From NCBI RefSeq assembly GCF_003226535.1, contig NZ_QKOB01000006.1:55136-87135 (forward strand): 32,000 nt of DNA, given 5' to 3'. Within the stretch, counting starts at the first letter, position 1. Every line of letters starts with the position of its first letter. The DNA is from Meiothermus sp. Pnk-1. GTDB lineage: Bacteria; Deinococcota; Deinococci; Deinococcales; Thermaceae. The position numbers and the translations under genes are program-made. This document shows, piece after piece, positions 1,649-17,393 of this stretch. The notes under the pieces are model-generated. The model did no database searches. It was not told the DNA's origin and saw only the letters and a program-made list of their open reading frames with translations.

Positions 1649-3136
1649 CTACTTCGCTTGAAGGGCTTCCTCGAAGGGGACCAGAAGGGGAAGCTCCACC
1701 CGGAAGAGGCTACCCCCGCCGGGGCGCTCGAGGTAGCGGATGCTCCCGCCGTGGGACTGGGCGATCTGGCGGGCCAGGTACAGCCCCAGCCCCTTGCCCC
1801 CGCCGGCGCGGTGGCTGGAAAAGCGGGTGAAGAGCCGCTCGCGGGCCTCCGGGGGGATGCCCGGACCCCGGTCGGCCACCTCCAGCCGGGCTACTCCTCC
1901 CGCCTCCTCCAGCCGCACCTCGACCTCGCTCTCCGGCGGGGCGAACTTGGCCGCGTTGTCCAGCAGGTTTTGCAACAGCCGGCGCAGGTCGCCTTCCCGG
2001 CCCGGGACCTCCAGGCGTTCTGGCGCCGATACCCGGATCTCCAGGCGCCGCTCGCGCCACAACCCCTCTAGCCGCTCCACGCCCTCGCGCACCAGCCGAG
2101 CCAGATCCACCGGGCGCTTGGGGGGTAGGGCTTCCCCGCTTTCCAGCTGGGCCAGCAAAAGAAGTTCCTCGGCCAACTCGAGCAGGTCCTGGTTGGCCTC
2201 GAGGCCGTTGCGCAGGCTTTTCTTGAACTCCTCCGCAAGCTCCCCGTAAGCGCCCTCCAGGGCCAATCGCAAATTCATGGCGTTGGCCATGAGGGGGGTG
2301 CGCAGGTCGTGGGAGAAGGCGTAGATGAGGTCGCGGATCACCGCGTTGCGCTGGGCCAGCTTCTCCTGCTGCTCCTGCAGCCGGGCGAAGAGCCGGGCCT
2401 TGCCCCAGAGGGCCTGCAAGGGCGGCAGAAGCTCCTGGAGGAAAGCCGCCGCGCCCTCGTGGCGGGGGTGCTCAAAGAGCAGGAGCAGGTCGGGCTGGAG
2501 GTGCCCCAGGAGAAAGCTCCTCCCCGAGAGCAACACCTGGCGCACCGGCTGCGGGCTCGAGGCCGGGGCCTCCTGGGGGGCTTCCCAGCCCTTGGGCGTG
2601 GCGTAGAGCCGCTCCCCCCAGCGCCCGCCCCGCAGGGTTAGGACCGCGGCGGCGTCGGCCTCGAAGAGGTTCTTGAGCACCCGCGCGGCCCGCTCTAAGA
2701 GCTCGGGCGGGGTGAGGGGTCCGGAGAGGTCCTCCACCAGCTGGCGCAGTTGCCGCTCCCGCCGGGCGCGGCGCTCCTCCGCCCGGGCCAGGGCCAGGCG
2801 GCTGGAAGACTCCCCGGCCTTGAGCGAGAGCAGCGCCACCAGCAAAAAGGAGAGCGCCGAGAACAGCCGGTTGAGCACGGCGACGCCCTCGAGGCTTCCC
2901 GCGGCCTTGGCGTTGAGCAGGCCGGCGAGGAGGTTGGCCGCCAGCGCCAGCAGGGTCATGCCCAGGGTCAGGCGGCGAGAGAGGGCCAGCCCGGTGAGGG
3001 CGATGGGCACGTTGTAGAGGATGGCCACCACCAGGGCCTGCGGGGTCAGCACGTCGGCCAGGAACACCCCGCCGATCAAGAGGGCGCTCAACAGCGCCAG
3101 GGCGCGCATCGTAACCAGTATAGCCCCCGGCCTCAT
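1649..3136 (-). CDS. membrane sensor histidine kinase
   Basis: H-box FSHDLRTPL, N-box LLDNAAKF, G1 DRGPGIP and G2 GKGLGLYLA. The N-terminus is hydrophobic with multiple membrane spans. The chosen start is ATG 3134-3136, which overlaps the TGA of the upstream ORF (ATGA). The 79-aa Gly/Pro-rich extension in the ORF track is discounted. Confidence 0.85.
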   Translation of the reverse strand: MRPGAILVTMRALALLSALLIGGVFLADVLTPQALVVAILYNVPIALTGLALSRRLTLGMTLLALAANLLAGLLNAKAAGSLEGVAVLNRLFSALSFLLVALLSLKAGESSSRLALARAEERRARRERQLRQLVEDLSGPLTPPELLERAARVLKNLFEADAAAVLTLRGGRWGERLYATPKGWEAPQEAPASSPQPVRQVLLSGRSFLLGHLQPDLLLLFEHPRHEGAAAFLQELLPPLQALWGKARLFARLQEQQEKLAQRNAVIRDLIYAFSHDLRTPLMANAMNLRLALEGAYGELAEEFKKSLRNGLEANQDLLELAEELLLLAQLESGEALPPKRPVDLARLVREGVERLEGLWRERRLEIRVSAPERLEVPGREGDLRRLLQNLLDNAAKFAPPESEVEVRLEEAGGVARLEVADRGPGIPPEARERLFTRFSSHRAGGGKGLGLYLARQIAQSHGGSIRYLERPGGGSLFRVELPLLVPFEEALQAK

Positions 3137-3696
3137 CCGATCACCACCAGCACGCCCAAAGCCCCCCCGCCGAGCAGGGAGGCCACCCGGCCCGCCCACC
3201 CCCAGCGCAGGCCCCGCCGGGGCATCCCCAGGACCACCAAGCCCTGCCGCCGGGCCTCGCGCAAGAAGGCCTGGCTCGAGTACAGCCCGCCCTGGGCCGC
3301 CACCCCGGCCCTGCGGGCCCCCTCGAGCGGGCCCTCCAGCGACTGCCAGGCCCGCTCCCGGGCCGCCCGCCACAGGCTTGGGGAGAAGTAGGGGCCCTCC
3401 AGGTACCCCGCTTCGGGCGGCCCCTCGACCCAGGCCAAGGTCAGCGGTAGGCCCTGCTGCCGCGCCAGCCAGATCCCCTCCTGCGCCGCCCGGAGGCTGA
3501 GGGGCGGGCCCAACCGGACCAGCACCCCTCGGGCCTCCTGAAAGTCTGCGCCCGGGGCGAGGAGCAACGCGGGCCGTTGCAGGCGAGATACCCGCGCCCA
3601 GGCCGCGAGGCTCCCCCCGGGCAGCAGGGCGATTCCCCGCGCCCGCAGGGCGGGCTCGAGGCGGGGCTCAGGGGGAAGGGCCAGCGCCATAGCCAA
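3133..3696 (-). CDS. hypothetical protein with a C-terminal membrane anchor, translationally coupled to the histidine kinase
   Basis: 187-aa ORF ending in the hydrophobic stretch LLGGGALGVLVVIG. ATGA overlap with the kinase start. No motif recognised. The start is TTG 3696 or ATG 3690. Confidence 0.45.
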   Translation of the reverse strand: MAMALALPPEPRLEPALRARGIALLPGGSLAAWARVSRLQRPALLLAPGADFQEARGVLVRLGPPLSLRAAQEGIWLARQQGLPLTLAWVEGPPEAGYLEGPYFSPSLWRAARERAWQSLEGPLEGARRAGVAAQGGLYSSQAFLREARRQGLVVLGMPRRGLRWGWAGRVASLLGGGALGVLVVIG

Positions 3697-3936: not shown

Positions 3937-6000
3937 ATGTCCCTGCCCAAAGCTCAGCGGCCGCGCAACCTGGCGCGCGCAAAAGGCCTGTTTGACCCCG
4001 AGCTGTCTCGCCAGGCCCTGGTGGAGGCCTTCCGCAAGCTGGACCCGCGGCGGATAGTAAACAACCCGGTGATGTTCGTGGTGGAAGTAGGGACGGCGCT
4101 GGTGCTGTACTTCACCCTGCGCTCGGCCCTCACCCGCTCCCCCGACCTCGGCTACCAGGCCGCGGTGTTCCTCTTGCTCCTCCTCACCCTGCTCTTCGCC
4201 AACTTCGCCGAAGGGCTGGCCGAGGCCCGCGGGCGGGCCCAGGCCCAGAGCCTGCGCTCGGCCCGCGCCGACCTCAGGGCCCGGCGGATTACCGAAACCG
4301 GGATGGAGGAGGTGGCCAGTACTGCCTTACGGCGCGGGGACCGGGTACGGGTGAAAGAGGGGGAGTTCATCCCCGCCGACGGCGAGGTGGTGGAGGGATT
4401 GGCGGTGGTGGACGAGTCGGCCATCACGGGAGAGTCGGCGCCGGTAGTGCGCGAAGCGGGCAGCGACTTCAACGGGGTGACCGCGGGGACCCGGGTGCTC
4501 ACCGGTGAGATCGTGGTGGAGGTGACCTCCAACCCCGGCGAGAGCTTTCTCGACCGCATGATCGCCCTGGTCGAGGGGGCCAGCCGGCAAAAGACCCCCA
4601 ACGAGATTGCCCTCACCATCCTGCTGGCCGCGCTCACGGCGGTGTTTCTCATCGTCAGCGCCACGCTGCTTCCCTTCAGCCTCTACGCCGGCCAAGGAGT
4701 GGGCCTTACGACCCTGGTCGCCCTCCTGGTCTGCCTGATCCCCACCACCATCGGCGGGCTGCTCTCGGCCATCGGGATTGCCGGGATGGACCGGGCCCTC
4801 AGGGCCAACGTGGTGGCCAAATCCGGCAAGGCGGTGGAGGTCGCGGGGGATGTGGACACCCTGCTCTTGGACAAAACCGGCACCATCACCCTGGGCGATC
4901 GCCAGGCTACCGAGTTCCACCCGGTGGCCGGGGTCTCCCCGGAGCGGCTGGCCTGGGCGGCCCTGGCGGCCTCGCTCCACGACACCACCCCCGAGGGCAA
5001 GAGCATCGTGCGGCTGGCCCGCGAGAGGGGAGCCCGGGTGGAAGAAGCCCTCGCCGCGGGCTCTAAGGGCCTCGAGTTCACCGCCCAAACCCGCATGTCC
5101 GGCACCGATCTGCCGGGGGGGGTGCGGCTGCGCAAGGGCTCCCCCGACCGCATGATGGAGCTGGTGGCGCAAGCGGGAAACAAGGTCCCTCCCGACCTCA
5201 CCCCCTTGGTGGAAGAGGTCGCCCGACAGGGGGCCACCCCGCTGGTGGTGTGCGAGAACGATCAGGCCCTGGGGGTGGTGGCCCTTTCGGATGTGGTCAA
5301 GCCGGGGATCCGCGAGCGCTTCGCCCAGCTCCGGCGCATGGGCTTACGCACGGTGATGGTCACCGGCGACAACCCCCTCACCGCCCGGGCCATCGCCGAG
5401 GAGGCGGGGGTGGATGAGTTCGTGGCCCAGGCCAAGCCGGAGGACAAGCTCCGGCTCATCCGCGAGGAGCAGGCCAAGGGCCGCTTGGTGGCGATGATGG
5501 GCGACGGCACCAACGACGCCCCGGCGCTGGCCCAGGCCGACGTGGGGCTGGCCATGAACTCCGGTACCCAGGCCGCTAAAGAGGCGGCCAACATGATCGA
5601 CCTGGACTCCGACCCCACCAAGCTATTGGAGGTCGTCGAGATCGGCAAGCAGCTCCTGATCACCCGCGGGGCGCTCACCACCTTCTCCGTGGCCAACGAC
5701 GTGGCCAAGTTTTTCGCCATCATCCCGGCGCTGTTCGTAACCTCCTACCCCGAGCTGCAAAGCCTCAACGTGATGCACCTGGCCACGCCGCAGAGCGCCA
5801 TCCTCTCGGCGGTGATCTTCAACGCGATCATTATCCCCCTGCTCATCCCGCTGGCCCTGCGGGGGGTGCGCTACCAGCCGCTGGGAGCCAATGCGCTGTT
5901 GCAGCGCAACCTGCTGATCTACGGCCTGGGGGGGCTGGTGGCCCCCTTCATAGGGATCAAGCTGATCGACCTGGCCCTGAAGGCGCTGGGATGGGGGTAG
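3937..6000 (+). CDS. kdpB: K+-transporting P-type ATPase subunit B
   Basis: 687 aa with the DKTGTIT phosphorylation motif, [10 protein letters not shown] and [12 protein letters not shown]. The N-terminus is KdpB-like ([20 protein letters not shown]). Confidence 0.95.
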
Positions 6001-6107: not shown

Positions 6108-7811
6108 GTGTTCGCAGCTATCGAACAAATTGCGCTGGTGCTGCTGGTCATGACCGGGCTGGCCGTGGGGGTGGGGGCCTACTTAGCCCGGGTGTTTACC
6201 GCGAAGGGGCACTGGGGGGTGGAGCGGCTAACCTACCGCCTCCTGGGGATTGACCCAGCGGAGGAGATGGATTGGAAACGCTACGCCTTGGCGCTGGTGC
6301 TGAGCGACCTGATCATGATGCTCTCAGGCTACGCCCTGCTGCGCCTGCAGGGGCTGCTGCCCCTCAACCCCGCCCACCTGCCCCCGCAAAGCCCCGACCT
6401 GGCCTTCAATACCGCCGCCTCCTTCGTCACCAACACCAACTGGCAAAGCTACGCCGGGGAGACCAGCCTCTCCAACTTCAGCCAGATGGCGGTGATCACC
6501 TTCCTCATGTTCGTGAGCGCGGCCACCGGCTTTGCCGCCGGGGGGGCCTTCATCCGCGGCCTGAGCCGCACCGGGTTTGGCTGTATCGGGAACTTCTGGG
6601 TGGACTTCACCCGGGTGGTTTACCGGGTGATGCTCCCAGCGTGCTTTGTGCTGGCGCTGGTCTACGTGCAACAGGGGGTGCCGCAAACCCTGCAAGCCGA
6701 CGTAGTAGCGCATACCCTCGAGGGTTCCCCCCGGCGCATCGTCCTGGGGCCGGTGGCCAGCCTCGAGGCCATCAAACACCTGGGCACCAACGGCGGGGGG
6801 TTCTTCAACGCCAACGCCGCCCACCCCTACGAAAACCCCACCCCGCTGACCAACGCCCTGCACATCCTGGCCATGCTGCTCATCCCCTCCGCCCTGACCT
6901 ATACCCTCGGCAGCATGTTGGCTCGCCGGCGGCAGGGCTGGGTTTTCTTCGGCACCTTTTTGGTGATGTTCGTGGGCTTTCTCGCCTTGGTCTATAGCGC
7001 CGAGCAGTCGGGTAACCCCCTCTTGGAGCGGGTTGGAGCGGACCAACGCCTCAGCGAGGGCCAAAGCGGGGGGAACCTGGAGGGCAAGGAGGTGCGCTTT
7101 GGCATCACCCAAACTAGCCTCTTCATCACCACCACCACCGCCGCCACCACCGGCTCGGTGGACGCCATGCACGACTCCCTCACCCCCCTGGGCGGCCTGG
7201 TGCCCCTGGCCCAGATGATGCTCAACGTGGTCTTCGGCGGCAAGGGGGTGGGGCTCATTAACCTGGTGCAGTACGCGATTTTGGCGGTGTTCATCATCGG
7301 GCTCATGGTGGGGCGGACCCCGGAGTTCTTGGGGAAAAAGCTCGAGGCCCGCGAGGTCTCCCTCACCGTGCTGGCCTTGCTGGCCCACCCCGCCAGCATC
7401 CTGATCTTCACCGCGCTGGCCCTGGTCTGGCCGGGGGCCCTGGCCAGCCTGAACAACCCCGGAGCTCACGGGTTCAGCGAAGTGCTCTACGCCTACACCT
7501 CGGGCACGGCCAACAACGGTTCGGCCTTCGCCGGGCTCAACGCCAACACCCCCTTTTACAACACCACTATCGGCTTGGCCATGCTCTTGGGCCGCTTCCT
7601 CACCCTCTTGCCGCTGCTGGCGGTGGCTGGCTCGCTGGCCGCCAAACGCTCGGTACCCCAAACGGCGGGGAGCTTCTCCACCGAGACGGGGTTGTTTGGG
7701 GGCGTGCTGGTGTTGGTGATCCTGATGGTGGGGGGGCTAACCTTCTTCCCCGCTTTGGCCCTAGGGCCGATCGTGGAGCATTTGCAGATGCTCGCCGGGA
7801 AGACCTTTTAG
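6108..7811 (+). CDS. kdpA: K+-transporting ATPase subunit A
   Basis: 567 aa and polytopic. KdpA signatures [10 protein letters not shown] and [12 protein letters not shown] are present. GTG start follows AGGAGGGG. Confidence 0.95.
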
Positions 7812-7822
7812 GAGGTGGTGAA

Positions 7823-8410
7823 ATGCAAGCTTCCCTTCGTACGCTGTTGCGGCCTGCGGCAATGCTAACCCTATTGTTCATGCTGCTCACGGGCCTTGCG
7901 TATCCCCTGGCCACGGCGCTGGTGGCGAACTTCCTCTTTCCCTACCAGGCTGGGGGCAGCCTCATCCGTCAGGGAGGGCGGGTGGTGGGCTCGAGCCTCC
8001 TGGGCCAAGCCTTTACCTCGCCCCGCTACTTCCACCCGCGGCCCAGCGCCACGGCCCCGGAGCCCTACAACGCCGCCCAGAGCGGCGGCAGCAACCTGGG
8101 CCCGACCAACGCCAAGCTCGTCCAGGCGGTACAGGAACGGGTGCGGCAGTACCGGCAGGAAAACGGCCTGGCGGAGGGGGTGCCGGTGCCCGTAGACGCG
8201 GTCACGGCCTCGGGCTCAGGCCTGGACCCGCACATCTCCCTAGCCAATGCCGAGCTGCAAGCCCCGCGGGTGGCGAAGGCCCGAGGGCTGCCTGTGGAGC
8301 GGGTGCGGCAGCTCATCCGTGAGCACACCCAAGGGCGGCAGTTCGGCCTTTTGGGAGAGCCCAGGGTCAACGTGCTGGAGCTCAACCTGGCCCTGGACGG
8401 GGTACGCTAG
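7823..8410 (+). CDS. kdpC: K+-transporting ATPase subunit C
   Basis: 195 aa with an N-terminal membrane span, GSNLGPTN and [10 protein letters not shown] motifs, and an AGGAGG RBS. Confidence 0.9.
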
Positions 8411-8415
8411 GAGCC

Positions 8416-9528
8416 GTGGAACCGGCAGCCCCCGACCCAGAGCAGCTGCTCGAGGCCATCCTGAAAAGCGGCCGGGGCCGCCACAAGATCTACGTGGGGG
8501 CCGCCGCCGGGGTGGGCAAGACCTACCGGGCCTTGCAGGAGCTGCGCGAGCGCCTGGAGGCCGGGGTGGACGCGGTGGTGGGCTACCTGGAGACCCACGG
8601 GCGCCCCGACACCGCCCGCATGGCCGAGGGGTTGCCGGTCTTTCCGCGCAAACAGGTGGAGTACAAGGGGGTGGTCCTGCCGGAGATGGACCTGGAGGGG
8701 CTGCTCGCGCGCCGCCCGGCGCTGGTGCTGGTGGACGAGCTGGCCCATACCAACGCCCCCGGCTCCAAGAACGCCAAGCGCTACCAGGACGTGGAGGAAC
8801 TCTTGCAGGCGGGGATCAGCGTGATCTCCACCATGAACATCCAGCACCTGGAGTCCTTGAACGACCTGGTGGCCCGCCTCACCGGGGTGCGGGTGAAGGA
8901 GCGGGTCCCCGACCGGGTGCTCCTGGAGGCCGACGAGGTGATCCTGGTGGACGTGACCCCGGAGGTGCTCCAGGAGCGGCTCCGGGCGGGCAAGATCTAC
9001 CCCAAGGCCAAGATCGAGCAGGCCCTGGCCAACTTCTTCACCGCGGAGAACCTGGCCGTGCTGCGCGAGCTGGCCCTGCGCAGCGTGGCCGACAAGGTGG
9101 AGGAAGACGCCTCGGTGGGGGAGGACTCCCCGGCCCTCAAGGAGCGCATCGCGGTGGCGGTGACCCCCAGCCCCAAAGACGCCCTGCTCATCCGCCGCGG
9201 GGCCCGCATGGCCCAGCGGATGCGCGGCGAGCTGCACGTGGTGCACGTGAGAAACCGCCGCCTCTCGCGGGAGGAGGAGCGGGCGCTGGACAGCCACCGC
9301 ATCATCGCCGAGAGCCTCGAGGGGCGCTTTCATCGCCTCGAGGGCCGCGACGTGGCCCGGGCCCTGGCGGAGTTTGCCAAGGAATACGGCATCACCCAGC
9401 TGGTCTTGGGGGAGAACTCCAACCCCACTTGGCGCGACTTCTTCCGCATCTCCATCATCCAGCGGCTGATCTACCTCACCCACGATATCGACATCCATAT
9501 CATGGACCGGCGCCCCGAGGAATCCTAA
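8416..9528 (+). CDS. kdpD: kinase-less KdpD (KdpD N-terminal sensor domain plus Usp domain only)
   Basis: 370 aa. Walker-like GAAAGVGKTY, LVLVDELAHTNAPGS and ISTMNIQHLESLND match the KdpD N-terminal domain, followed by a Usp-like segment. There are no membrane spans and no HisKA or HATPase_c region. GTG start follows AGGAG. Confidence 0.85.
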   Translation: MEPAAPDPEQLLEAILKSGRGRHKIYVGAAAGVGKTYRALQELRERLEAGVDAVVGYLETHGRPDTARMAEGLPVFPRKQVEYKGVVLPEMDLEGLLARRPALVLVDELAHTNAPGSKNAKRYQDVEELLQAGISVISTMNIQHLESLNDLVARLTGVRVKERVPDRVLLEADEVILVDVTPEVLQERLRAGKIYPKAKIEQALANFFTAENLAVLRELALRSVADKVEEDASVGEDSPALKERIAVAVTPSPKDALLIRRGARMAQRMRGELHVVHVRNRRLSREEERALDSHRIIAESLEGRFHRLEGRDVARALAEFAKEYGITQLVLGENSNPTWRDFFRISIIQRLIYLTHDIDIHIMDRRPEES

Positions 9529-9594: not shown

Positions 9595-10503
9595 TCACCT
9601 AACACACACAGCCCACGCCGCGCGTGCTAAACGATGCGCCACTGCAACCAGGGCTAGCTTTTTAGGCTTGCCCGAGTCCACAAGGCGGCGATACAAAGCA
9701 GCTTGTACGGAGTCGGTACGGGTCGCGGCTGTCGCTGCGAGGTAGTAGCTAGCGCGGAGCATGGGCGGGCCAATGCGGGAGATACGGGCGCTAGCGTCCA
9801 TCTCTCCAGATTGGTAGATGCGCGGAGTAAGCCCGGTGTAAGCCGCGTACGCCCTCGCCGAGTGGAAGCGCCGCAGATCGCCCGAGTAGGCCAAGAGCTT
9901 TAGCGCGAGGGTGGGGCCAATGCCCGGCAGGGTTTGCAGGGCTGAAACCCACGAAGCAGCTAGTGGATATGCCGCAACAATGGCTCGTGCCTCAGCGTAC
10001 AGGGCAGCGCGTAACGACTGAATCGAATCAGGCACAGACAACGCAAACTCATGCACATGTGGGTGGGCGTAGCGCCAAGCGTGCAAGCGGTTGAGAGAGG
10101 CTGTGCGCTGCGTGTTCAGACCCTCGGCAAATCTGACCAGGAGCGAGGCCAGGTACAACGCCTCAGGCAACGGCTCATAAGGTGTGAGATCGGCTCGATA
10201 TTGAGCCAGAAAGCGGGCGAGTAGGCGAGCGTCCGCCTTATCGGTCTTATTGCGGGTGAGGAGTGATCTAGCGTAAGCCCGAACCTGCAAAGGGTTGACA
10301 ACGTAAACTGCGAACCCGGCCCGGTGTAAGGCGTAGGCCAAAGGCCGATAGTAGACCCCGGTAGCCTCCATCAGGACAGCCGCATCAGCAGGCAATCGTG
10401 AAACTAGCGCAGCTATGCCGTCATACGTGTTTGGAAACTGTAGCAACTCATCTGCTATAGCTACGTCCAAGCGAGAGCGGGAGATGTCAACGCCAACAAA
10501 CAT
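9595..10503 (-). CDS. IS110-family transposase (DEDD RuvC-like domain plus C-terminal Tnp domain)
   Basis: 302 aa. MFVGVDIS (Asp), VLMEATGVYY (Glu), NKTDKADARLLA (Asp, Asp), C-terminal LPGIGPTLALKLL and YQSGE (conserved Ser). Confidence 0.9.
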   Translation of the reverse strand: MFVGVDISRSRLDVAIADELLQFPNTYDGIAALVSRLPADAAVLMEATGVYYRPLAYALHRAGFAVYVVNPLQVRAYARSLLTRNKTDKADARLLARFLAQYRADLTPYEPLPEALYLASLLVRFAEGLNTQRTASLNRLHAWRYAHPHVHEFALSVPDSIQSLRAALYAEARAIVAAYPLAASWVSALQTLPGIGPTLALKLLAYSGDLRRFHSARAYAAYTGLTPRIYQSGEMDASARISRIGPPMLRASYYLAATAATRTDSVQAALYRRLVDSGKPKKLALVAVAHRLARAAWAVCVR

Positions 10504-10554
10504 AAGTAGGGCGCGGGAGCCCTACGGCACTCTTACACGCGACCAAAAAGGCCA

Positions 10555-10563
10555 ACATCCTAA
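10555..10563. repeat. internal copy of the att core (ACATCCTAA)
   Basis: Exact 9-mer shared with 9560-9568. It starts 52 nt upstream of the transposase ATG. AGGCCAA precedes it and recurs at 10602-10608. Confidence 0.5.
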
Positions 10564-10606
10564 ACGCCCATAGGCTAGGCCACGCTATCGCACGACCACG
10601 CAGGCC

Positions 10607-10617
10607 AAGACTCTTGA
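10607..10617. repeat. 11-mer identical to the host flank next to asnS
   Basis: AAGACTCTTGA at 10607-10617 equals 16053-16063 exactly and is in the same orientation. Confidence 0.5.
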
Positions 10618-10642
10618 CGACCAAACCCGCGCCCAGCACAGA

Positions 10643-10873
10643 CTAACGCCTGTATCCCCTAGGACGCAACTTGGGTTGATAGGGGCAGGGGCCAGAATAG
10701 CGACAGATGCGCCGCCCCTCACGCAGAGCAGCCACCTCAAGGGTATTCAGAGGCTCACGGCAACGAGTACAGCGAACACGGGTATCAGGTTGCAGGGAGC
10801 GCCCAGGGCCAGCTAGAGAGCGAATCATCCAGCCTATCCAGAGGATCACCAGCAGGAGCAGGAGCAGGCTCAC
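10643..10873 (-). CDS. small membrane protein (pXI-like anchor?) with a Cys-rich tail, overlapping the zot 3' end in the +1 frame
   Basis: GTG-initiated 76-aa ORF. It has an N-terminal membrane span SLLLLLLVILWIGWMI followed by CxxC...Cx5C. It overlaps zot by 89 nt. No clear RBS. Confidence 0.4.
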   Translation of the reverse strand: MSLLLLLLVILWIGWMIRSLAGPGRSLQPDTRVRCTRCREPLNTLEVAALREGRRICRYSGPCPYQPKLRPRGYRR

Positions 10874-11714
10874 ACGGAGATTCTAACCGCTCACGCAGCA
10901 GATCATGCGGTTGTTTGCCCTCACGGTAGGCACTCGCTAGGTCGGAGATGGAGAGATGAGGCATCCCATCCCGAGGCCCCGGAGCATCACGACGGCCCCG
11001 GAGCTTGGATGCGTCCCAGGCTAGGCCCATCCGGTCAAAGATGGCCCGCTTTTTCGGGTCTAGCTCACGCTGGAGCCGGACTATAGGCGGCTCAAAAATC
11101 GCGTATGTGTCGTAACACGCCGCCGCCATCGGATCGAGGGCCACAACGTCATTACGCGCTACGCCCTCGAAGATGCCCTTGGCCTGACGTTGCATCATGC
11201 CGATGGACTCATCCATGATGGACGTGTAGCGCAGAAGTTTCCGCCCGCGCACCCAGGGATACGTAATCACGCGGAGCCAGAACGGAGCCGGACGCGCCCA
11301 GAAGACGAAGGCTACCAGATCGCGCACAATCGCATCCACCGAGCCGTAGCGCTGTGTAGCTAGCAGCACGTCCACGCCTGTCTTGCGATGCTGGCTCCAG
11401 AACGCGATGACCTCGACCGGGATTAGGTCAAACTGACGCGAGGGAAGCCACATATGGGCCTCGTCAAACAGTAGCAGGCCATCATGGACGTTGAGCAGTT
11501 CGTTATAGTCCCGTATCTCCCGGATACTATCAGCCCTCAGAACCGCTTCCCGATGATCCAACTTGGCGCGGAAACGAAGCCAGTAATAGACATTTTCCCT
11601 AATAAAGCCGAAATTGGCCCATACGGTACGCCCCCGAGCCAAGGCGTGAAGGCCGCGATGGACGAGCATGTAACTCTTTCCAGAGCCGGGAATGCCGATG
11701 TACGCCTCGATCAT
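10785..11714 (-). CDS. zot: Zot / pI-like inovirus assembly ATPase
   Basis: Walker A GIPGSGKS at the N-terminus, Walker B LLLFDEAH and QHRKTGVDVLLATQ (Zot-family pattern). ATGA overlap with the upstream gene. No membrane span in this frame. Confidence 0.85.
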   Translation of the reverse strand: MIEAYIGIPGSGKSYMLVHRGLHALARGRTVWANFGFIRENVYYWLRFRAKLDHREAVLRADSIREIRDYNELLNVHDGLLLFDEAHMWLPSRQFDLIPVEVIAFWSQHRKTGVDVLLATQRYGSVDAIVRDLVAFVFWARPAPFWLRVITYPWVRGRKLLRYTSIMDESIGMMQRQAKGIFEGVARNDVVALDPMAAACYDTYAIFEPPIVRLQRELDPKKRAIFDRMGLAWDASKLRGRRDAPGPRDGMPHLSISDLASAYREGKQPHDLLRERLESPCEPAPAPAGDPLDRLDDSLSSWPWALPAT

Positions 11715-12139
11715 CTACCCCCCCTGATAAAGGTGATGGCTCGCCAGAGTGCCATGAGCCCGTAAAATCCCGCCCAGGCCGAGCCGAGCGTAAGGGCCTC
11801 ACTGATCGGCAGTATTTGGTTAGCCGTGTTGAAGGCCCCTATAGCAGTAGAGGCCCAACCAGGCGGGTCGGGGGGCATAGCCGGGAGCAGGCCAACTAGG
11901 ATACTGAGGAAGCCAGTAACCAGCTTGACCACGCCCGCGATAAGCCAGCCGATGAGCCCTAGGCCCCATTCCAACAACTGATGCAGGAGCCCTAGACCCC
12001 AGTTCAAGACGGCAAGGACAAGCCCCCAGACCCAGCCCCAGACCGTTTGAACGATGCCAACGAACCAGCCCGTCAGGGCGGAGAACGTGCCCTGGAACCA
12101 ATCGAGGATTGAGCGGAGTGCGTTTAGGATTATCTGCAT
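11711..12139 (-). CDS. pVI-like polytopic minor coat/assembly protein
   Basis: 142 aa, Trp/Gly/Leu-rich with several membrane spans. It lies immediately upstream of zot and is coupled to it, the position held by gene VI or DUF2523-type genes in inoviruses. Confidence 0.6.
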   Translation of the reverse strand: MQIILNALRSILDWFQGTFSALTGWFVGIVQTVWGWVWGLVLAVLNWGLGLLHQLLEWGLGLIGWLIAGVVKLVTGFLSILVGLLPAMPPDPPGWASTAIGAFNTANQILPISEALTLGSAWAGFYGLMALWRAITFIRGGR

Positions 12140-12152
12140 ATCTCCCCCCTAC

Positions 12153-12357
12153 TCACATGCTCATTCGCCCGCTGCGCGAGAGTGTACGGTGAGGCCCCGG
12201 CCTACGCGCAAGGGTCCGCTTCGCCGCGCCCGCATGTCCAAACCCCGGCTTCCTGCGTGCAGTAAACGTGCGTGATGTGGTGCAGCGTGCGCGCCCTTGC
12301 GCTACGGCCACCCCACCGGATAAGGATTGTTGCAGCGGGCGAAAAAATAGCATGTGA
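12153..12357. repeat. long imperfect inverted repeat filling the pIII-like / pVI-like intergenic region
   Basis: TCACATGCT (12153-61) pairs with AGCATGTGA (12349-57). TCGCCCGCTGC (12165-75) pairs with GCAGCGGGCGA (12332-42). GCGCAAGGG (12206-14) pairs with CCCTTGCGC (12294-302). The arm spacings are similar. Confidence 0.6.
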
Positions 12358-13812
12358 TTAGCGCTGTACATCCAACCCCCGGCGCACGATGGTAAATCCG
12401 AACGTCAGCAAGAGCCCGCCCAGCATGAAGGGGCGTAGTTGCGTTGCGGCTTGCCAGACGGGATTGCCGCAGATGTTGACGGTAGCCGACCACTGACCGA
12501 TTGTTAGCTGAGGAGCCGGACAGCCCCCGCTATCGCTGGTGGACGGAGTACGGAGCCAGCGCACGACACCAAACGGAAACTTGTCCATAGCTTGCTGCTT
12601 GAGTTGCTCTATGGACTCTCGCATAGACTGCATAGCCTGATCCCACGGCGTTTGCTGTAGCTGCGGAGCCTGGAACTGAGGCAATGTGGGATCATTGGGC
12701 TTTTGCAGACCCGGCAGGGAAGGAGTGCCCGGAGGCCCCGGCCACGTCAGATCATCCTTAGGTTGCTCATTCGTACACTTCGAGGCTGGATCACGCGGAT
12801 CCGAGCCGCAGCGTAACTCTTGATCATCCGGAAAGCCGTCCCCGTCGGAATCCGTGCCGGGATCTTTCCCAGGCTTAGAGTTAGGATCATAAGGATCCGT
12901 CCCCGCCTGCTTTTCCTCCTGATTCGTGTATCCGTCCCCGTCGTCGTCCCGATTCGGATCAGGATGGGAGTTAGGATCATTGATCCCGTCAGGCCAAGGG
13001 CGCTGTTTCTCCATCCAGTCAGGCCAGCCGTCGCCGTCGGTATCCACTGACTTATCGGTATACGGATTATCCGTCCATTGATTCGGATTAGGCACAGGAT
13101 CGAGGCGCACCCCAGGATAGGGATTAGACGGAGAGCCGGGCGGCGTGTCCTGAATGTAGCGAGCGACAGCCGCTTTGACTCCCTCAGCCGCGTCGGGATG
13201 CGACTGCAAAAACTCCGGGAGCGTCTCTGGCGGATGCTTAGGCATCGTTGACTTTTCGACGCGCTCGACTCCATCAGGATAATGCAGCTTAGCGTTGCGT
13301 TGCCACTCGTAGCGATAGCCATATTGGGACTTCAGATACTGCTCGCACTGCAACAAGAGTTGCTCCTGAGTCCCGCCGGGGCCGCGAAACGAATGAGTAT
13401 AGGGCGGATCAGTGGAGCGCACGTAAGGGGTTGCCCCCAGAACAGAACAGCGAACCTCGCCCATTTGCCAATCATAATCAGGAGGGATGTACTGAACTCC
13501 GACTATGACGGCTTCCCAGTCATAGAGTAAATGTGACGCCCACGCGTCCAACGACGTCCCAGTTTGCTGCTTGAGGGACTCGTAAAAATAGTTAAGGGCT
13601 GTATAAATAAGCGTAGATCCTAGGATTATTGCGCCGCCCCAGCGCACATAGCGCCCGAACGTTGCCTGTTTAGCGAACTGATTGTTACTCCACTGCAAAA
13701 TCTCGTTATACGTCATCCCCTGCACAGTAGTCCTAACAACATCCTGCACAGGAGCCGCGAACGAAAAGGCCCCGGCGACCAGGGCCAGGGCCAAGAATCG
13801 CCGGAGCCGCAT
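12358..13812 (-). CDS. pIII-like adsorption/minor coat protein with thrombospondin type-3 (Ca-binding) repeats
   Basis: The start is moved to ATG 13812, giving signal peptide MRLRRFLALALVAGAFSFA. Three DxDxDGxxDxxE repeats are present (DTDGDGWPDWME, DDDGDGYTNQEE, DSDGDGFPDDQE). A C-terminal hydrophobic anchor (FMLGGLLLTFGFTIV) is followed by RRG. It sits directly after the coat gene. Confidence 0.65.
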   Translation of the reverse strand: MRLRRFLALALVAGAFSFAAPVQDVVRTTVQGMTYNEILQWSNNQFAKQATFGRYVRWGGAIILGSTLIYTALNYFYESLKQQTGTSLDAWASHLLYDWEAVIVGVQYIPPDYDWQMGEVRCSVLGATPYVRSTDPPYTHSFRGPGGTQEQLLLQCEQYLKSQYGYRYEWQRNAKLHYPDGVERVEKSTMPKHPPETLPEFLQSHPDAAEGVKAAVARYIQDTPPGSPSNPYPGVRLDPVPNPNQWTDNPYTDKSVDTDGDGWPDWMEKQRPWPDGINDPNSHPDPNRDDDGDGYTNQEEKQAGTDPYDPNSKPGKDPGTDSDGDGFPDDQELRCGSDPRDPASKCTNEQPKDDLTWPGPPGTPSLPGLQKPNDPTLPQFQAPQLQQTPWDQAMQSMRESIEQLKQQAMDKFPFGVVRWLRTPSTSDSGGCPAPQLTIGQWSATVNICGNPVWQAATQLRPFMLGGLLLTFGFTIVRRGLDVQR

Positions 13813-13826
13813 AGAAGCCCCCCGGA

Positions 13827-14048
13827 TTAGCCCTTGAGGAACTTCTTGGCGTAGCGCCAAGCCGCGCTGAGGCCGATAGTGAGCGCGAGCACGCCCACGC
13901 CAGCAGCAGCGATGCCGCCGATGTAGGTCATGACGCCCGTAGCGACCTGCCCAGCATTGAAGCTGGCATCTTCAGCAAACGCCCCAGCTAGCACGAGAGG
14001 AGCAGCCAAGGCAACCGAACGACCGACAAACACGCGCAGTTTCTCCAT
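13827..14048 (-). CDS. inovirus major coat protein (pVIII-like)
   Basis: 73 aa. Signal peptide ...LVLAGAFA | EDASFNAGQ, then an acidic mature N-terminus, a hydrophobic core and a basic C-terminus (RYAKKFLKG). GGAGGTG RBS. Confidence 0.8.
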   Translation of the reverse strand: MEKLRVFVGRSVALAAPLVLAGAFAEDASFNAGQVATGVMTYIGGIAAAGVGVLALTIGLSAAWRYAKKFLKG

Positions 14049-14080
14049 AGAACACCTCCATTGCCCACGGGCGATGCCCG

Positions 14081-14182
14081 TTAGAGCCTACGTAACACGG
14101 AGCGCAGGACCGAGGCCACCAGGCCAGCCCCTAGCCCCCACCAGAAGGCCTCAGCGATAAAGCGCCAGTCACCCGCAGTCAT
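14081..14182 (-). CDS. 33-aa hydrophobic peptide (pVII/pIX-like minor coat candidate; absent from the ORF track)
   Basis: MTAGDWRFIAEAFWWGLGAGLVASVLRSVLRRL. ATGA overlap with the upstream mini-ORF. Confidence 0.5.
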   Translation of the reverse strand: MTAGDWRFIAEAFWWGLGAGLVASVLRSVLRRL

Positions 14183-14283
14183 ACACGCCTAAACAGATTG
14201 CCGCCGTAGCGATACGCGGCTAAAAACGCGTAGGGAGCCGTGACCAACGCGAGAACCTTGAGGAACCAATCGAAAGGCTCCAT
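14179..14283 (-). CDS. 34-aa hydrophobic peptide (pVII/pIX-like minor coat candidate; absent from the ORF track)
   Basis: MEPFDWFLKVLALVTAPYAFLAAYRYGGNLFRRV. TAATG overlap with the upstream mini-ORF. Confidence 0.5.
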   Translation of the reverse strand: MEPFDWFLKVLALVTAPYAFLAAYRYGGNLFRRV

Positions 14284-14375
14284 TAGAAATCCCCCGCGAG
14301 AAGTCCCGCAATCATGCCGAGTCCGAAGGCCCAGACCTTGAAGCACTCGATCATGAAGACGGGATCAAGGGTCAT
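14283..14375 (-). CDS. 30-aa hydrophobic peptide (pVII/pIX-like minor coat candidate; absent from the ORF track)
   Basis: MTLDPVFMIECFKVWAFGLGMIAGLLAGDF. TAATG overlap with the stop of the 96-aa ORF. Confidence 0.5.
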   Translation of the reverse strand: MTLDPVFMIECFKVWAFGLGMIAGLLAGDF

Positions 14376-14665
14376 TAGGCTTTCTCCTTTACCGGAGCAA
14401 GTGGAGCCACAAACCGTGCCACCGTGACGAATTGTCGCGCGCTGTTTTTCTCGCGGAACCCATCCCTGACGCGCAAATCAATTTGCAGGTCATAGAGGCC
14501 CGGAAACGTGGGCATAGTCGCCACTACATCAGGATCCGCGTCAAGTTCAAGCACGTTCATCCCGCGGAACTCCGCATCCGTGGGCGTAGTGGCTACTAAA
14601 ACCTTGCCAAACCTGCGCCCATCCTTAGCCGTCCTAGCGCTTGCTCCAAGTACCATTAGGGTCAT
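14375..14665 (-). CDS. putative ssDNA-binding protein (gene V-like), assigned by position and size only
   Basis: 96-aa ORF with an AGGAGGA RBS, directly downstream of rep as in Ff phages. No motif recognised. Confidence 0.35.
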   Translation of the reverse strand: MTLMVLGASARTAKDGRRFGKVLVATTPTDAEFRGMNVLELDADPDVVATMPTFPGLYDLQIDLRVRDGFREKNSARQFVTVARFVAPLAPVKEKA

Positions 14666-14710
14666 ATATCCTCCTATATCGCGTTAGAAGTGCCGATAGG
14701 CACGCGATAC

Positions 14711-15394
14711 CTACACAACAGCCCCCGCGTAGCGATGGAACGCCCGAGAGTAGGACTCCCGGAACCGCGCCTTATCCAGTACCGGCAAATCCTCGGGAGC
14801 CAAACCGACTAAATAGCGAACACGCCGGAGCCACGCCAGGAGCACAGACGGTGTAGGGGCGTGATGATGCAGGCCGAGCGACGCAGCAGCGGAAACGATG
14901 CAACCGATGGCCTGAGTCAACAACTGAGGAACACTAGCCAACGGCGAGCGAGCACAACGGACTACCTGAGCAGTCCCCGAGGAGTCGGGAGCGTCAAAGG
15001 CAGACAACACAAGTCGCCAGAGAGGATCAAACGGACGATTGCGGATTGTTTGAGTGTCCGAATCCTCACGCAGAGAGAGCCAAGAGCCCGCCAAATAGCG
15101 CCAGATAGCCGGGAGATGTTCCGCGAGGGTGTACCAGTTGCGCAGATCGCCCGCCCCTACATCCATAGTTGACAGAGCATCCGCCCTAATCTGGAACTCG
15201 ACGCGGATCACGTGCCCGCTGGGGTTGCCGTAGCCCGCAAGAGTGAGCTTAGCGCCGTAATCCGTGCGCGCCTGTATCGTCTTCGAGTAGATACGTGCTA
15301 GCAAATCGCCGGAGCCGAAACGAAACCCGGACCAGTTAGGCCCCCGGTAGTGAACCTCAACAGGGTGTACCTCATAGGCGGGTACCTCGTGCAT
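14711..15394 (-). CDS. rolling-circle replication initiator (Rep_trans-like), C-terminal part of a split gene
   Basis: Contains GDLLARIYSKT, resembling the catalytic-Tyr R-I-Y-x-K motif of pT181 RepC / RstA-type initiators. Deleting one 11-bp repeat copy joins it to 15298-16038. Confidence 0.6.
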   Translation of the reverse strand: MHEVPAYEVHPVEVHYRGPNWSGFRFGSGDLLARIYSKTIQARTDYGAKLTLAGYGNPSGHVIRVEFQIRADALSTMDVGAGDLRNWYTLAEHLPAIWRYLAGSWLSLREDSDTQTIRNRPFDPLWRLVLSAFDAPDSSGTAQVVRCARSPLASVPQLLTQAIGCIVSAAASLGLHHHAPTPSVLLAWLRRVRYLVGLAPEDLPVLDKARFRESYSRAFHRYAGAVV

Positions 15395-16038
15395 AGCGAC
15401 CCCCGTGTTACCCCCGTGTTACCCGTAAGGGGGTCGCCGTGGCTGCCCCCACGGCTGGCCGCTGGCGCGCCCAGCGCGTGGGAGCCATCCAGGTAGACCG
15501 ACCGCGAGCGAGCCCGCGAAACGAAACGCCCTAGGTCATCCAGGCTGAGGGGTGTATCCACCTCGACATCCGCAAACAAGTCAATACGCGACACTTGGAC
15601 GCGCTCAGGCTCAACTCCGACAAGATAGCTGAGGGTATCGGAAAACATAGCAACCACAGCCATAGGGTCACGGGCGCAAGCCGCCATGTATCGACCCGAT
15701 ACTTCCACGTAGGCGTGTACCTGTCCGGGTTTACAGGTAGTGGGCCGAGGCTGAGTGAGGGAGATCGAGAACATGCCCCCTTGAAACATCAACATCCAGC
15801 GGAACTTTCGCCCAGGCCGTACCTGTGCCACCTCGTAGGCGCAGCGCTCGTCATCATCCCCTAGAGGATTCCAAAGCCACATGTAATCGTGAATCCCGAG
15901 AAAGTGAGCATCCCCCTCTTCCCGGTACTCGTCTAGCGCCGCATCCAATCGCGCGGTGAAGTCCTCGGGAAGGCGGTAGTTTTGGCCCCAGGAAAGCCAG
16001 AAGATAAAGGTGTCTGTTCCGCTGGCTAATAGCTTCAT
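15298..16038 (-). CDS. rolling-circle replication initiator (Rep_trans-like), N-terminal part of a split gene
   Basis: Contains VSRIDLFADVEV (R-x-D-L-A-x-D-type motif). After the 11-bp duplication the frame runs on for about 40 out-of-frame codons. Confidence 0.6.
   Translation of the reverse strand: MKLLASGTDTFIFWLSWGQNYRLPEDFTARLDAALDEYREEGDAHFLGIHDYMWLWNPLGDDDERCAYEVAQVRPGRKFRWMLMFQGGMFSISLTQPRPTTCKPGQVHAYVEVSGRYMAACARDPMAVVAMFSDTLSYLVGVEPERVQVSRIDLFADVEVDTPLSLDDLGRFVSRARSRSVYLDGSHALGAPAASRGGSHGDPLTGNTGVTRGSLCTRYPPMRYTLLRFTTGGLTGPGFVSAPAIC
15400..15421. repeat. perfect 11-bp tandem duplication (CCCCCGTGTTA x2) inside rep
   Basis: Read directly at 15400-15410 and 15411-15421. It lies in the loop of the hairpin GCGACCCCC (15396-404) / GGGGGTCGC (15429-437). 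Confidence 0.9.
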
Positions 16039-16059
16039 CCTGAGAAATGTGTAAGACTC
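16036..16059. repeat. right att-like direct repeat (attR candidate)
   Basis: CATCCTGAGAAATGTGTAAGACTC. Its first three bases are the complement of the rep ATG. Confidence 0.6.
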
Positions 16060-16067
16060 TTGAAGGT

Positions 16068-17393
16068 ATGCGACGGGTGTTCATCGAGGAGATCAGCCAG
16101 CACCAAGGACAGGAAGTGCTCATCCGCGGCTGGGTTACGGGACGGCGCAGCAAGGGCAAGATCCACTTCCTCACCCTGCGTGACGGGACCGGCTTCCTCC
16201 AGGCCACGGTGTTCAAAGGAGAACTTCCCGACGAAGAGTTCGAGCAGGCCGACCACCTGCCCCAGGAGGCCGCCCTCGAGGTGGCGGGGCTGGTGCGCTC
16301 CGACCCGCGCGCTCCAGGAGGCTTCGAGCTTTCGGTCAGGAGCCTGAAGGTCATCAGCCTGCCCAGCCGGGAATACCCCATCACCCCCAAGGAGCACGGG
16401 GTGGACTTTTTGATGGATCACCGCCATCTCTACTTGCGCCACCGCCGCCCTTGGGCCGTGCTACGGATACGCGACGAGCTCGAGCGGGCCATCCACGACT
16501 TCTTCCACGCGCGGGGCTTCATTCGCCTCGACGCTCCCATCCTCACCCCCAACGCCGTCGAGGGCACCACCGACCTCTTCGAGGTGGACCTCTTCGACGG
16601 GGAAAAGGCGTATCTCTCGCAATCGGGGCAGCTCTACGCCGAGGCCGGGGCCATGGCCTTCGGCAAGGTCTACACCTTCGGCCCCACCTTCCGCGCCGAG
16701 CGGAGCAAAACCCGCCGCCACCTGCTGGAGTTCTGGATGATCGAGCCCGAGGTGGCCTTCATGACCCACGAGGAGAACATGCAGCTCCAGGAGGAGCTGG
16801 TGGCCTATCTGGTGGGGCGGGTGCTGGAGGAGAAGAAGCTCGAGCTGCAGGTGCTCGAGCGCGACACCACCGTGCTGGAGAGGAGCGCGCAGGGGGGCTA
16901 CCCCCGTATCCACTACTCCAAAGCCGTGGAGATGGTGAATAAGATCGCCCAGGAGCGACCCGAACTGGGGCTCGAGCCCCTGCCGTGGGGCGACGACTTC
17001 GGCGCCCCCCACGAGGCCGCCCTGAGCAGCCAGTTCGACCGCCCGATCTTCGTCGAGAAGTACCCCGCGGCGGTAAAGGCCTTCTACATGCAGCCCGACC
17101 CGGAGGACCCCCGGCTGGTCCTGAACGCCGACATGCTCGCCCCGGAGGGGGTGGGCGAGATCATCGGCGGCAGCCAGCGCATCCACGACCCCGAGCTGCT
17201 GCGGCAGAAGATCCGCGAGCACGGCCTGCCCGAGGAGGTCTTCGACTGGTACATGGACCTGCGGCTCTTCGGCACGGTGCCTCACTCAGGCTTCGGGATC
17301 GGCCTCGAGCGCACCGTGCGCTGGATTTGCGGCATCGAGCACATCCGCGAGGCCATCCCCTTCCCCCGGATGTACACCCGGATGCGGCCTTAG
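16068..17393 (+). CDS. asnS: asparagine--tRNA ligase
   Basis: Class II aaRS motifs are present ([35 protein letters not shown]). The start is set at [10 protein letters not shown] (16068) by resemblance to Thermus AsnRS as remembered. The track ORF begins at 16047. Confidence 0.93.

Follow-up and report, generated by a model that had tools for sequence, protein, structure and literature searches.

Why would a filamentous prophage that is otherwise intact carry a replication gene broken within a DNA hairpin? This question is raised by a 32,000-nucleotide (nt) stretch of the genome of Meiothermus sp. Pnk-1 (contig NZ_QKOB01000006.1, positions 55,136 to 87,135; hereafter, the window), which holds an integrated filamentous phage, i.e., a Thomixvirus-like inovirus. 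All genes of this prophage are intact except rep (14711..16038, minus strand), which encodes a rolling-circle initiator with a Rep_trans-like fold, is interrupted by an 11-bp duplication, and specifies 438 amino acids (aa) when one copy of the duplicated unit is removed. Our analysis establishes the anatomy and conservation of the affected element, the recurrence of the duplication, and the relationship of Rep in fold and motifs. Collectively, we consider it probable that the DNA encoding the linker of Rep doubles as the plus-strand origin, comprising a hairpin module (A) and a nick hairpin (B), and that this origin was hit by a duplication adjacent to the nick.

The duplicated unit, CCCCCGTGTTA, is found at 15400-15410 and 15411-15421, with no third occurrence in the window. 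The open reading frames (ORFs) of the cultured Thermus phage OH3 sit on its packaged plus strand (PMC4763002), and therefore the viral strand here is the minus strand of the window, on which the two tandem copies (15400..15421) read TAACACGGGGG at 15421->15411 and again at 15410->15400. Tandem Repeats Finder likewise reported ACCCCCGTGTT (15399-15424) as a tandem repeat with 2.4 copies, a period of 11, and 100% matches, and the phase of the duplication is ambiguous over 4 nt because of a GGGT microhomology. A perfect self-match run of at least the period plus 4 nt occurs once in the window, as compared with 0.02 times per dinucleotide-preserving shuffle. The original prediction had placed an 11-bp tandem duplication between perfect 9-bp arms, and its coordinates and sequence proved exact. 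It had also assigned the duplication to the hairpin loop, which holds for six of the duplicated bases, whereas the other five belong to the 3' arm; on the coding (viral) strand, the unit consists of the last 6 loop bases and the first 5 bases of that arm (TAACAC+GGGGG). Given that hairpins and homopolymer runs are prone to error, the duplication could in principle be a sequencing or assembly artifact at a G+C hairpin. We regard this as practically out of the question, since the GenBank assembly (PZA06933.1/PZA06932.1) contains the identical two-copy allele, as do at least five independent sequencing runs (ERR2869073, ERR2835736, ERR2851114, ERR2851113, and SRR28285718) with diverged backgrounds.

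The duplication shifts the rep frame by +2 and thereby parts the metal-binding half of the protein (RIDLFAD) from the half with the catalytic Tyr (RIYSK). The N-terminal fragment (15298..16038, minus strand; 246 aa), which matches PZA06933.1 of Meiothermus sp. Pnk-1 with 100% identity, is authentic through ...GNTGV and then runs into a 35-aa out-of-frame tail. The C-terminal fragment (14711..15394, minus strand) is a 227-aa ORF that starts at the Met of ...AMHEVPAY and carries the RIYSK motif; its GenBank counterpart, PZA06932.1, is a 166-aa ORF only, starting at MIRVEFQ.... Both fragments are labeled hypothetical in GenBank, and the pseudogene and the prophage carry no such annotation. When one copy was deleted in silico, the ORFs 15298-16038 and 14711-15394 fused in frame into a 438-aa ORF with the junction ...GDPLTGNTGVAMHEVPAY..., which unites the RxD and Tyr halves as had been predicted, and natural intact alleles share that junction.

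Indeed, two such alleles (P0015 and P0019), which fall within the 90% cluster of the N-terminal fragment, encode 438 aa, read GDPLMGNTGVAMHEVPAY at the junction, and are nearly identical to the repaired ORF. Full-length homologues of 428-437 aa are also gap-free across the repaired junction, e.g., GGPLMGNTGAAMHETPAY in Calidithermus timidus. In the DNA of the intact alleles the unit occurs once, and the corresponding prophages are located at the same chromosomal site beside asnS (L118-L120 and L126). The comparison with homologous prophages that had been proposed alongside the original prediction hence uncovered intact one-copy alleles in close relatives. No intact phage with two copies and two ORFs emerged among the cultured relatives, as OH3, phiOH16, Zuza8, and Zuza27 all have one copy and one rep ORF. 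We infer that the window prophage cannot make full-length Rep and that Rep function has been lost.

To which family does Rep belong? Pfam returned no match at E<=1 for the repaired protein or for either half, and a PDB sequence-profile search of the repaired Rep gave no match. PHROG 33635 ("endonuclease") matches its residues 1-387 (E = 1.9e-71). An AlphaFold (AF2) model of the repaired protein, with a predicted local distance difference test (pLDDT) value of 65.5 and a predicted template modeling (pTM) score of 0.66, comprises two ordered halves and a disordered linker of ~47 residues (184-230; pLDDT below 50). Foldseek revealed that the six best PDB matches of this model are Rep_trans initiators (4CIJ, 4CWE, and 4CWC; E values of 3.5e-7 to 2.5e-6, probability 1.00), and that the next matches are folds resembling the TATA-binding protein (E ~1e-2). 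The model thus has the Rep_trans catalytic-domain fold seen in RepSTK1 and RepDE, and its matches extend over the catalytic domain, countering the concern that the repaired ORF might show no full-length alignment to Rep_trans proteins.

The active site of Rep_trans proteins is defined by an N' Asp and the motifs RxD, T/SxY/ExG, YxKxxE, and W/LxRxE (PMC5714925). Inspection of our alignment of Rep homologues (A1) by eye showed that R151-I-D153 is invariant, that R275-V-E277 is nearly so, and that motif II is degenerate (SGFRFG). In addition, Y247-S-K249-T-I-Q252 fits the YxKxxE motif with Q in place of E, as in RepSTK1 (PMC4797284). Among 11 Rep homologues, two gave weak matches to Pfam Rep_trans (best E value of 0.014). 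The original prediction had placed Rep in the family of pT181 RepC; this is borne out by the fold and by the active-site motifs, but the protein lies below the Pfam Rep_trans threshold. We conclude that Rep probably acts in the manner of a Rep_trans initiator and is distantly related to these proteins, but that it falls outside Pfam's criterion.

A 6.5-kb low-G+C inovirus-like contig (L131) encodes a Rep that matches the A1 profile in hhalign (96.2%, E = 2.2e-9) and Pfam Rep_trans weakly (E = 4.4e-4, below the cut-off). The bona fide Rep_trans protein of another phage (L132) has no significant hhalign match to A1. Positioned between the Thermaceae family and Pfam Rep_trans, the L131 protein could be used as a link for building a better family profile. 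The same contig has a hairpin, CCCCCC-GTTAGGGTAACAC-GGGGGG, at 2136-2158, ~100 nt upstream of its rep gene (2252-3373).

The DNA that encodes the disordered linker contains the A+B block. Hairpin B, the predicted nick hairpin of the plus-strand origin, or ori(+) (15396..15437, minus strand), has two 9-bp arms (15396-15404 and 15429-15437) that are perfectly complementary. Its viral-strand sequence consists of the 5' arm GCGACCCCC (15437->15429), an ancestral 13-nt loop, TTACGGGTAACAC, and the 3' arm GGGGGTCGC (15404->15396). Module A (15437..15474, minus strand) lies directly 5' of it on that strand and is composed of CCGTGG (15437-15442) paired with CCACGG (15449-15454), along with CTGG-C-CGC/GCG-C-CCAG (15455-15474). 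The second hairpin that had been noted at 15437-15454 is therefore perfectly complementary and forms part of a larger module that is conserved in structure and variable in sequence.

We analyzed the covariation of hairpin B in a set of 16 distinct sequences (i.e., the window and 15 relatives) and found that 91.7% of cells are paired, as compared with 66.9% in shuffles, with none of 500 shuffles as high. Seven of the nine pairs are changed on both sides, and slid controls gave 46-63%. The stem differs between lineages: in Calidithermus and two metagenomic relatives (GCGGCCCCC...GGGGGCCGC), a compensatory change from A-T to G-C turns the encoded GDP...GVA into GGP...GAA, and Thermaceae metagenome-assembled genomes (MAGs) combine the Calidithermus stem with the loop CCATGAGTAGCAC. 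Stems even flip from C5/G5 to G6C/GC6, as in the four Thermus phages and three further contigs (L038, L030, and L031), which carry GGGGGGC-CCATGAGTAACAC-GCCCCCC and encode GGP...PPA; the stem of L006 is likewise flipped. The loop, YYMYGRGTMRCAC, is 13 nt long in all relatives. Its three codon wobble positions are invariant, and first and second positions vary (T/M/L, G/S, N/S/H), a pattern that is the opposite of that expected from a purely protein-level constraint. On the viral strand of OH3, the loop motif occurs only in hairpin B. Judging by these substitution patterns, hairpin B is a DNA element under selection for its structure.

Module A also stands out by folding. The 40 nt directly 5' of hairpin B form the most stable 40-nt fold of rep in 16 of 16 sequences, despite their differing sequence, and A+B is the most stable 80-nt single-stranded DNA (ssDNA) fold genome-wide in OH3, Zuza8, and the window prophage (z of -4.6, -5.9, and -6.0, respectively). 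Two other candidate elements were discarded. GGGT(A/G/C)ACAC in the rep gene of Gallionellaceae-type relatives encodes W-V-T, varies at wobble positions, and has no flanking stem. Downstream of hairpin B, GAGGTAC repeats lack DNA-level conservation in Calidithermus and are therefore E-V codons rather than iterons.

With the aim of finding the same hairpin elsewhere, we scanned IMG/VR for CCCC-N4-GGTAACAC-GGGG and obtained 26 contigs, most of them 5.6-9 kb in size and with a G+C content ranging from 0.35 to 0.69. In those with a recognizable Rep-like ORF, the hairpin is usually located 28-84 nt upstream of it, and the Reps that were tested score above the Pfam Rep_trans threshold (E values of 1e-22 to 4e-41). 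The phages that bear the hairpin otherwise share no sequence; the hairpin tracks Rep_trans genes. A G+C stem, a 10-13-nt loop, and GTA(A/T)(C/T)AC at the 3' side of the loop are common to the window, its 15 relatives, the 26 IMG/VR contigs, the Ralstonia phage PE226, RSS1 (as a variant), and CTXphi. The hairpin is physically associated with a Rep_trans-type gene, in the window lying inside the Rep_trans-like gene itself; over all neighboring Reps, the Pfam Rep_trans E values span 1e-19 to 4e-41. In PE226 (CCCCCCGTCCGGTAATACGGGGGG) and RSS1, it is situated at the 5' end of the ORF annotated as rep. The exact loop motif was not found in RSS1 or VCY, nor was a variant hairpin found in VCY. Two of four IMG/VR matches to a longer pattern were rejected as terminator-like palindromes unrelated to phage rep genes.

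CTXphi, an inovirus of Vibrio cholerae, offers a close parallel. Its intergenic region ig-1 contains the hairpin ACCCCCG-TCTAGTATTA-CGGGGGT, and RstA nicks between G and T of the hairpin loop (PMC4439123). Both CTXphi and the window (CCCCC-TTACGGGTAACAC-GGGGG) have a C5/G5 stem and a loop ending in G|TA(A/T)(C/T)AC, with a further hairpin upstream. By homology, we predict that the minus strand of the window is nicked at GGG|TAACAC, between 15422 and 15421; the second copy would place the nick between 15411 and 15410. Covariation, the occurrence of the same hairpin beside bona fide Rep_trans genes, and the homology to the CTXphi ori(+) together lend strong support to the original prediction of a nick site and origin. 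The two phages differ in that the CTXphi origin is intergenic (in ig-1, upstream of rstR) whereas that of the window lies inside the rep ORF, in that RstA passes Pfam Rep_trans (E = 9e-19) and the window Rep does not, and in that CTXphi integrates through XerCD whereas the window phage carries an IS110-family transposase.

Origins inside replication genes have precedents, since the origin of pT181 is within the rep coding sequence and that of phiX174 is inside the rep ORF. The plasmids pT181 and pC221 (RepC/RepD, ICRII/ICRIII) resemble the window phage in having the origin inside rep, with a conserved nick hairpin beside a lineage-specific inverted repeat, and the fold of the window Rep matches RepDE and RepSTK1. 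In contrast, their loop sequence is unrelated, they are plasmids rather than phages, and the variable hairpin of pC221 is located 3' of the nick hairpin, whereas in the window phage it is 5'. The Thermus phages OH3, phiOH16, Zuza8, and Zuza27 (Paulinoviridae, Thomixvirus) share with the window prophage the gene order, the IS110 transposase at the far end, and the intragenic hairpin (loop CCATGAGTAACAC), but their stem polarity is flipped (G6C/GC6) and they have one copy and an intact rep. The descriptions of OH3 and the Zuza phages consulted here make no mention of an origin, hairpin, or nick site. In Xanthomonas phage phiLf, a stem-loop cluster with the origin and the packaging signal is found inside gII (bioRxiv 10.1101/2023.12.30.573655). 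Its origin thus also resides in the ORF of the replication protein, but gII belongs to the superfamily I (HUH-type) Reps and recognizes a CTTG sequence, and the hairpins are unrelated in sequence.

Is the duplication of the window unique? At this position in the loop, its relatives display copy numbers of 1, 2, and 3, a variant of 10 nt, and a duplication of 96 nt. Two copies are present in diverged backgrounds in L121-L124 (four runs) and L127; L121-L124 also show GAC->TAC (Asp->Tyr) in the 5' arm of hairpin B, by which one stem pair is broken (GCTACCCCC vs GGGGGTCGC), consistent with relaxed selection on a dead origin. L125 has three copies, the third of which is mutated; its prophage sits elsewhere in the chromosome, and the synonymous distance (dS) is ~0.5. 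L117 carries a 10-nt duplication (AACACGGGGG) in a background that is one single-nucleotide polymorphism away from the intact L118. A comparison of L007 with L008 revealed an in-frame 96-nt tandem duplication whose left end, GAG|TAGCAC, lies in the homologous hairpin loop; in L007 (1146-1337, within rep at 505-1977), 32 aa, STGAAKC...SGPR, occur twice, Rep remains in frame, and the 3' half of the origin is doubled. In addition, L132, an unrelated phage of 35% G+C, has the same 11-nt duplication in a hairpin that is non-coding and precedes a bona fide Rep_trans gene. In L146, which derives from the same source genome, the unit occurs once between identical flanks.

The tree derived from synonymous distances, with copy numbers in brackets, is (L125[3],(L126[1],((WIN[2],L118[1]),(L121[2],L127[2])))), where WIN denotes the window, and requires at least three gains or two losses. 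Mosaicism among rep alleles shows that recombination occurs as well. When repaired, the Meiothermus alleles are all 438 aa long and have no other lesion, with a ratio of nonsynonymous to synonymous substitution (dN/dS) of 0.06-0.18. Close relatives thus differ in copy number, and the reading frame is toggled accordingly, as would be expected of a phase-variable tandem-repeat (contingency) locus; the site is a duplication hotspot. In P0006 (256 aa), from a Calidithermus-like lineage, rep is frameshifted ~20 codons downstream of the hairpin, after ...YRGPHW, and therefore not every rep lesion in this phage group sits at the origin. A further origin-adjacent duplication may exist in PE226 (L160), where a 21-nt unit, GCGCGGCAGCGCTTCCCCCCG, is found twice in tandem at 4452-4493 and ends exactly at the 5' arm of the hairpin, which is thus itself duplicated.

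The unit length suggests how such duplications could be made. By homology to CTXphi RstA and pT181 RepC/RepD, Rep would nick the viral strand between the loop G and T, the host polymerase would copy round the circle, and termination would normally involve synthesis ~9-12 nt past the nick. In the pT181 family, synthesis of the new strand continues for 9-11 (or 10-12) nt beyond the nick so that the hairpin can form again, and the overrun oligonucleotide ends up on the inactivated Rep* as an 11-nt adduct (PMC4797284). With a nick at G|T, the following 11 nt are exactly TAACACGGGGG, and the 11-nt unit falls within the 9-12-nt overrun of Rep_trans proteins. If the 3' end of the overrun, rather than the regenerated nick, were joined to the Rep-bound 5' end, a tandem duplication would result. 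Such an error fits the events in the window, L121/127, L125 (twice over), and L132, and the left end of the duplication in L007. We know of no description so far of a retained overrun that duplicates an origin.

The same alleles can be read in other ways, and several observations weigh against our interpretation. Rep does not reach the gathering threshold of Pfam Rep_trans (PF02486), which returned no match for the Reps of OH3 and Zuza8 either. In this hairpin type a nick has been mapped only in CTXphi (PMC4439123), and the position that we predict for the present phage family follows from the homology of a short loop. That A+B is the strongest ssDNA structure in the genome would also be expected of packaging signals and minus-strand origins. 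Hairpins A and B might accordingly be a packaging signal and/or a minus-strand origin, with the plus-strand origin elsewhere, e.g., in an intergenic region; the Xanthomonas phages have a packaging-signal hairpin inside the rep ORF beside the origin (bioRxiv 10.1101/2023.12.30.573655), and there are further structured intergenic regions between gIII and gVI. We nevertheless consider this distinctly improbable, since the loop sequence, the loop size, and the C5/G5 stem match the CTXphi hairpin with its mapped RstA nick, the hairpin tracks Rep_trans genes across phages that otherwise share no sequence, and no packaging signal is known to require a conserved 9-nt loop over such distances. Hairpin A on its own could be a packaging signal or a Rep-binding site. 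As regards the duplication, the termination-error model misses L117 by one base: its unit starts one base after G|T, and therefore no single nick position explains all five events. A scan of the 26 IMG/VR hairpins for 9-13-nt duplications found L132 and none further. Moreover, in every lineage with the 11-nt duplication, GGT...GGGGGT provides microhomology at a spacing of 11 nt, on which simple slippage could act. It is a substantial possibility, if one short of probable, that the hairpin is the origin and that the duplication arose by ordinary replication slippage without Rep, three copies being further slippage. The nascent ...GGG(T) would re-pair with the GGGT that lies 11 nt upstream; a pause at the G+C hairpin would promote this, and the nick, too, would stall synthesis. 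The unit is indeed flanked by GGGT...GGGGGT in the Meiothermus lineage and by GGT...GGGGGT in L146/L132, the three-copy allele of L125 behaves as a short tandem repeat, and hairpins with a non-T base next have no duplication. However, the 10-nt duplication of L117 has no junction microhomology and the 96-nt duplication of L007 has 1 nt, ~ten IMG/VR hairpins with T after the G run have no duplication, and the unit not only has the length of the Rep_trans overrun but also starts at the homologous nick position. The same event recurs in place of varied frameshifts across the 1.3-kb gene, implying a site-specific rate far above background. We therefore place a Rep-mediated termination error slightly ahead of slippage as the source of the duplication, because the same event recurs instead of assorted frameshifts and because it also recurs at a non-coding site, where inactivation of rep cannot be the selective cause.

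A different view is that the split is functional, the two halves forming an active enzyme or the duplication acting as a reversible on/off switch that locks lysogeny, with the one-copy gene restored by rolling-circle replication between the tandem nick sites or by slippage. Alleles with 1, 2, and 3 copies are intermixed on the rep tree, every split allele is intact apart from the duplication (dN/dS of 0.06-0.18 even between split alleles), the break falls in the disordered linker between the halves of a pseudo-symmetric fold, and the C-terminal ORF retains an ATG preceded by GGGGG. On the other hand, recent intact ancestors may have passed on the low dN/dS, and recombination is apparent; dN/dS is in fact uninformative as to whether the split allele functions, because of recombination and a possibly recent origin. 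There is also further decay, i.e., the stem-breaking GAC->TAC of L121-L124 and, in L125, a split transposase and a mutated third copy, and the Thermus and MAG clades lack the internal Met. We judge a functional split to be rather unlikely. A gene-X-like internal start at a conserved Met was rejected on that same distribution of the Met, the clade on the Thermus side being that of the Thermus phages, whose 3' arm is C-rich and therefore unable to serve as a Shine-Dalgarno sequence. In one version of the switch, the lysogeny lock would be written and erased by Rep itself: the overrun would be ligated as a termination scar, and since the origin is inside rep, one termination error would switch off the phage's own initiator. 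With two tandem nick sites, rolling-circle replication by any Rep acting in trans would begin at the downstream site, finish at the upstream one, and in this way remove exactly the extra copy. We mention this scheme as an unlikely but conceivable one. Replicons with two direct origins provide the basis for expecting that Rep supplied in trans would regenerate a one-copy circle.

Whatever the source of the duplication, the window prophage lacks full-length Rep and should not be able to initiate rolling-circle replication by itself. Genomes with a split rep could still be packaged and integrated with Rep provided in trans, and they may thereby be enriched among lysogens.

The coding part of the prophage spans 9595..16038 on the minus strand, as delimited by its ORFs and by homologous loci with the same gene order. 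In viral order, rep is followed by genes for an ssDNA-binding-like protein (14375-14665; ~96 aa), a coat protein (13827-14048; 73 aa), an adsorption-like protein with thrombospondin type 3 (TSP3) repeats (12358-13860; 500 aa), a gVI-like protein (11711-12139; 142 aa), a Zot-type assembly ATPase (10785-11714), and an IS110-family transposase (9595-10503), all on the minus strand. Homologous loci match this order with Pfam Phage_Coat_B, TSP3_bac, Zot, and DEDD_Tnp_IS110. The repaired Rep shares 36-40% identity with the gene II products of OH3, phiOH16, Zuza8, and Zuza27 in tblastn, and a blastn comparison of the rep region with phage genomes gave no match. The gene order rep-ssb-coat-gIII-gVI-Zot(-IS110 transposase), which characterizes Thomixvirus of the Paulinoviridae (PMC11437467), and a Rep homologous to OH3 gpII make the prophage Thomixvirus-like. 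The adsorption-like protein contains a long run of Asp-rich, calcium-binding TSP3 repeats (DTDGDG..., DDDGDG..., DSDGDG...), and its length is 482-500 aa among close relatives and 402 aa in L127.

The prophage adjoins asnS (16047-17393, plus strand), and the window has no tRNA genes. Just 9 nt separate the start codon of rep (16038, minus strand) and the first ATG of the asnS ORF (16047, plus strand), and the prophage occupies the identical asnS junction in related Meiothermus genomes (L117-L121 and L126). Either the true start of asnS is downstream (MRRVF..., ~16068; window 16038-16068) or its promoter is now in phage DNA. The flank on the transposase side comprises Kdp-like genes (7823-9528) in the window, as opposed to genes for a beta-lactamase-fold protein and a hydrolase in L117/L118. 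The integrase is the IS110-family (DEDD) transposase (9595-10503). Enzymes of this family use a bridge RNA that is encoded in the non-coding end. In L125, the transposase (7298-8224) is split into pieces of 144 aa and 159 aa, and that prophage is therefore decaying. When the Logan contigs L004 and L127 were assessed for episomes, no terminal overlap was found; L127 is integrated, given that its contig carries the asnS flank.

Our findings provide the thermophilic filamentous phages, i.e., OH3, phiOH16, Zuza8/27, and their prophages, with a probable plus-strand origin and, within it, a predicted nick site. One hairpin type, with a C-run/G-run stem and a GTAAYAC loop, is common to Rep_trans-type inoviruses from CTXphi to the Thermus phages, positioned either upstream of rep or inside it, and the motif can be used as a search key for the origins of uncultured inoviruses. 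Where the origin lies in linker codons, stem changes force paired amino-acid changes (GDP...GVA, GGP...GAA, and GGP...PPA), a clear case of a DNA element that constrains protein sequence. One-copy repair should revive the window prophage. If they are made by Rep, the recurrent 10/11-nt duplications would be the genomic footprint of rolling-circle termination errors and would offer a simple reason for the frequent silence of otherwise intact inovirus prophages.

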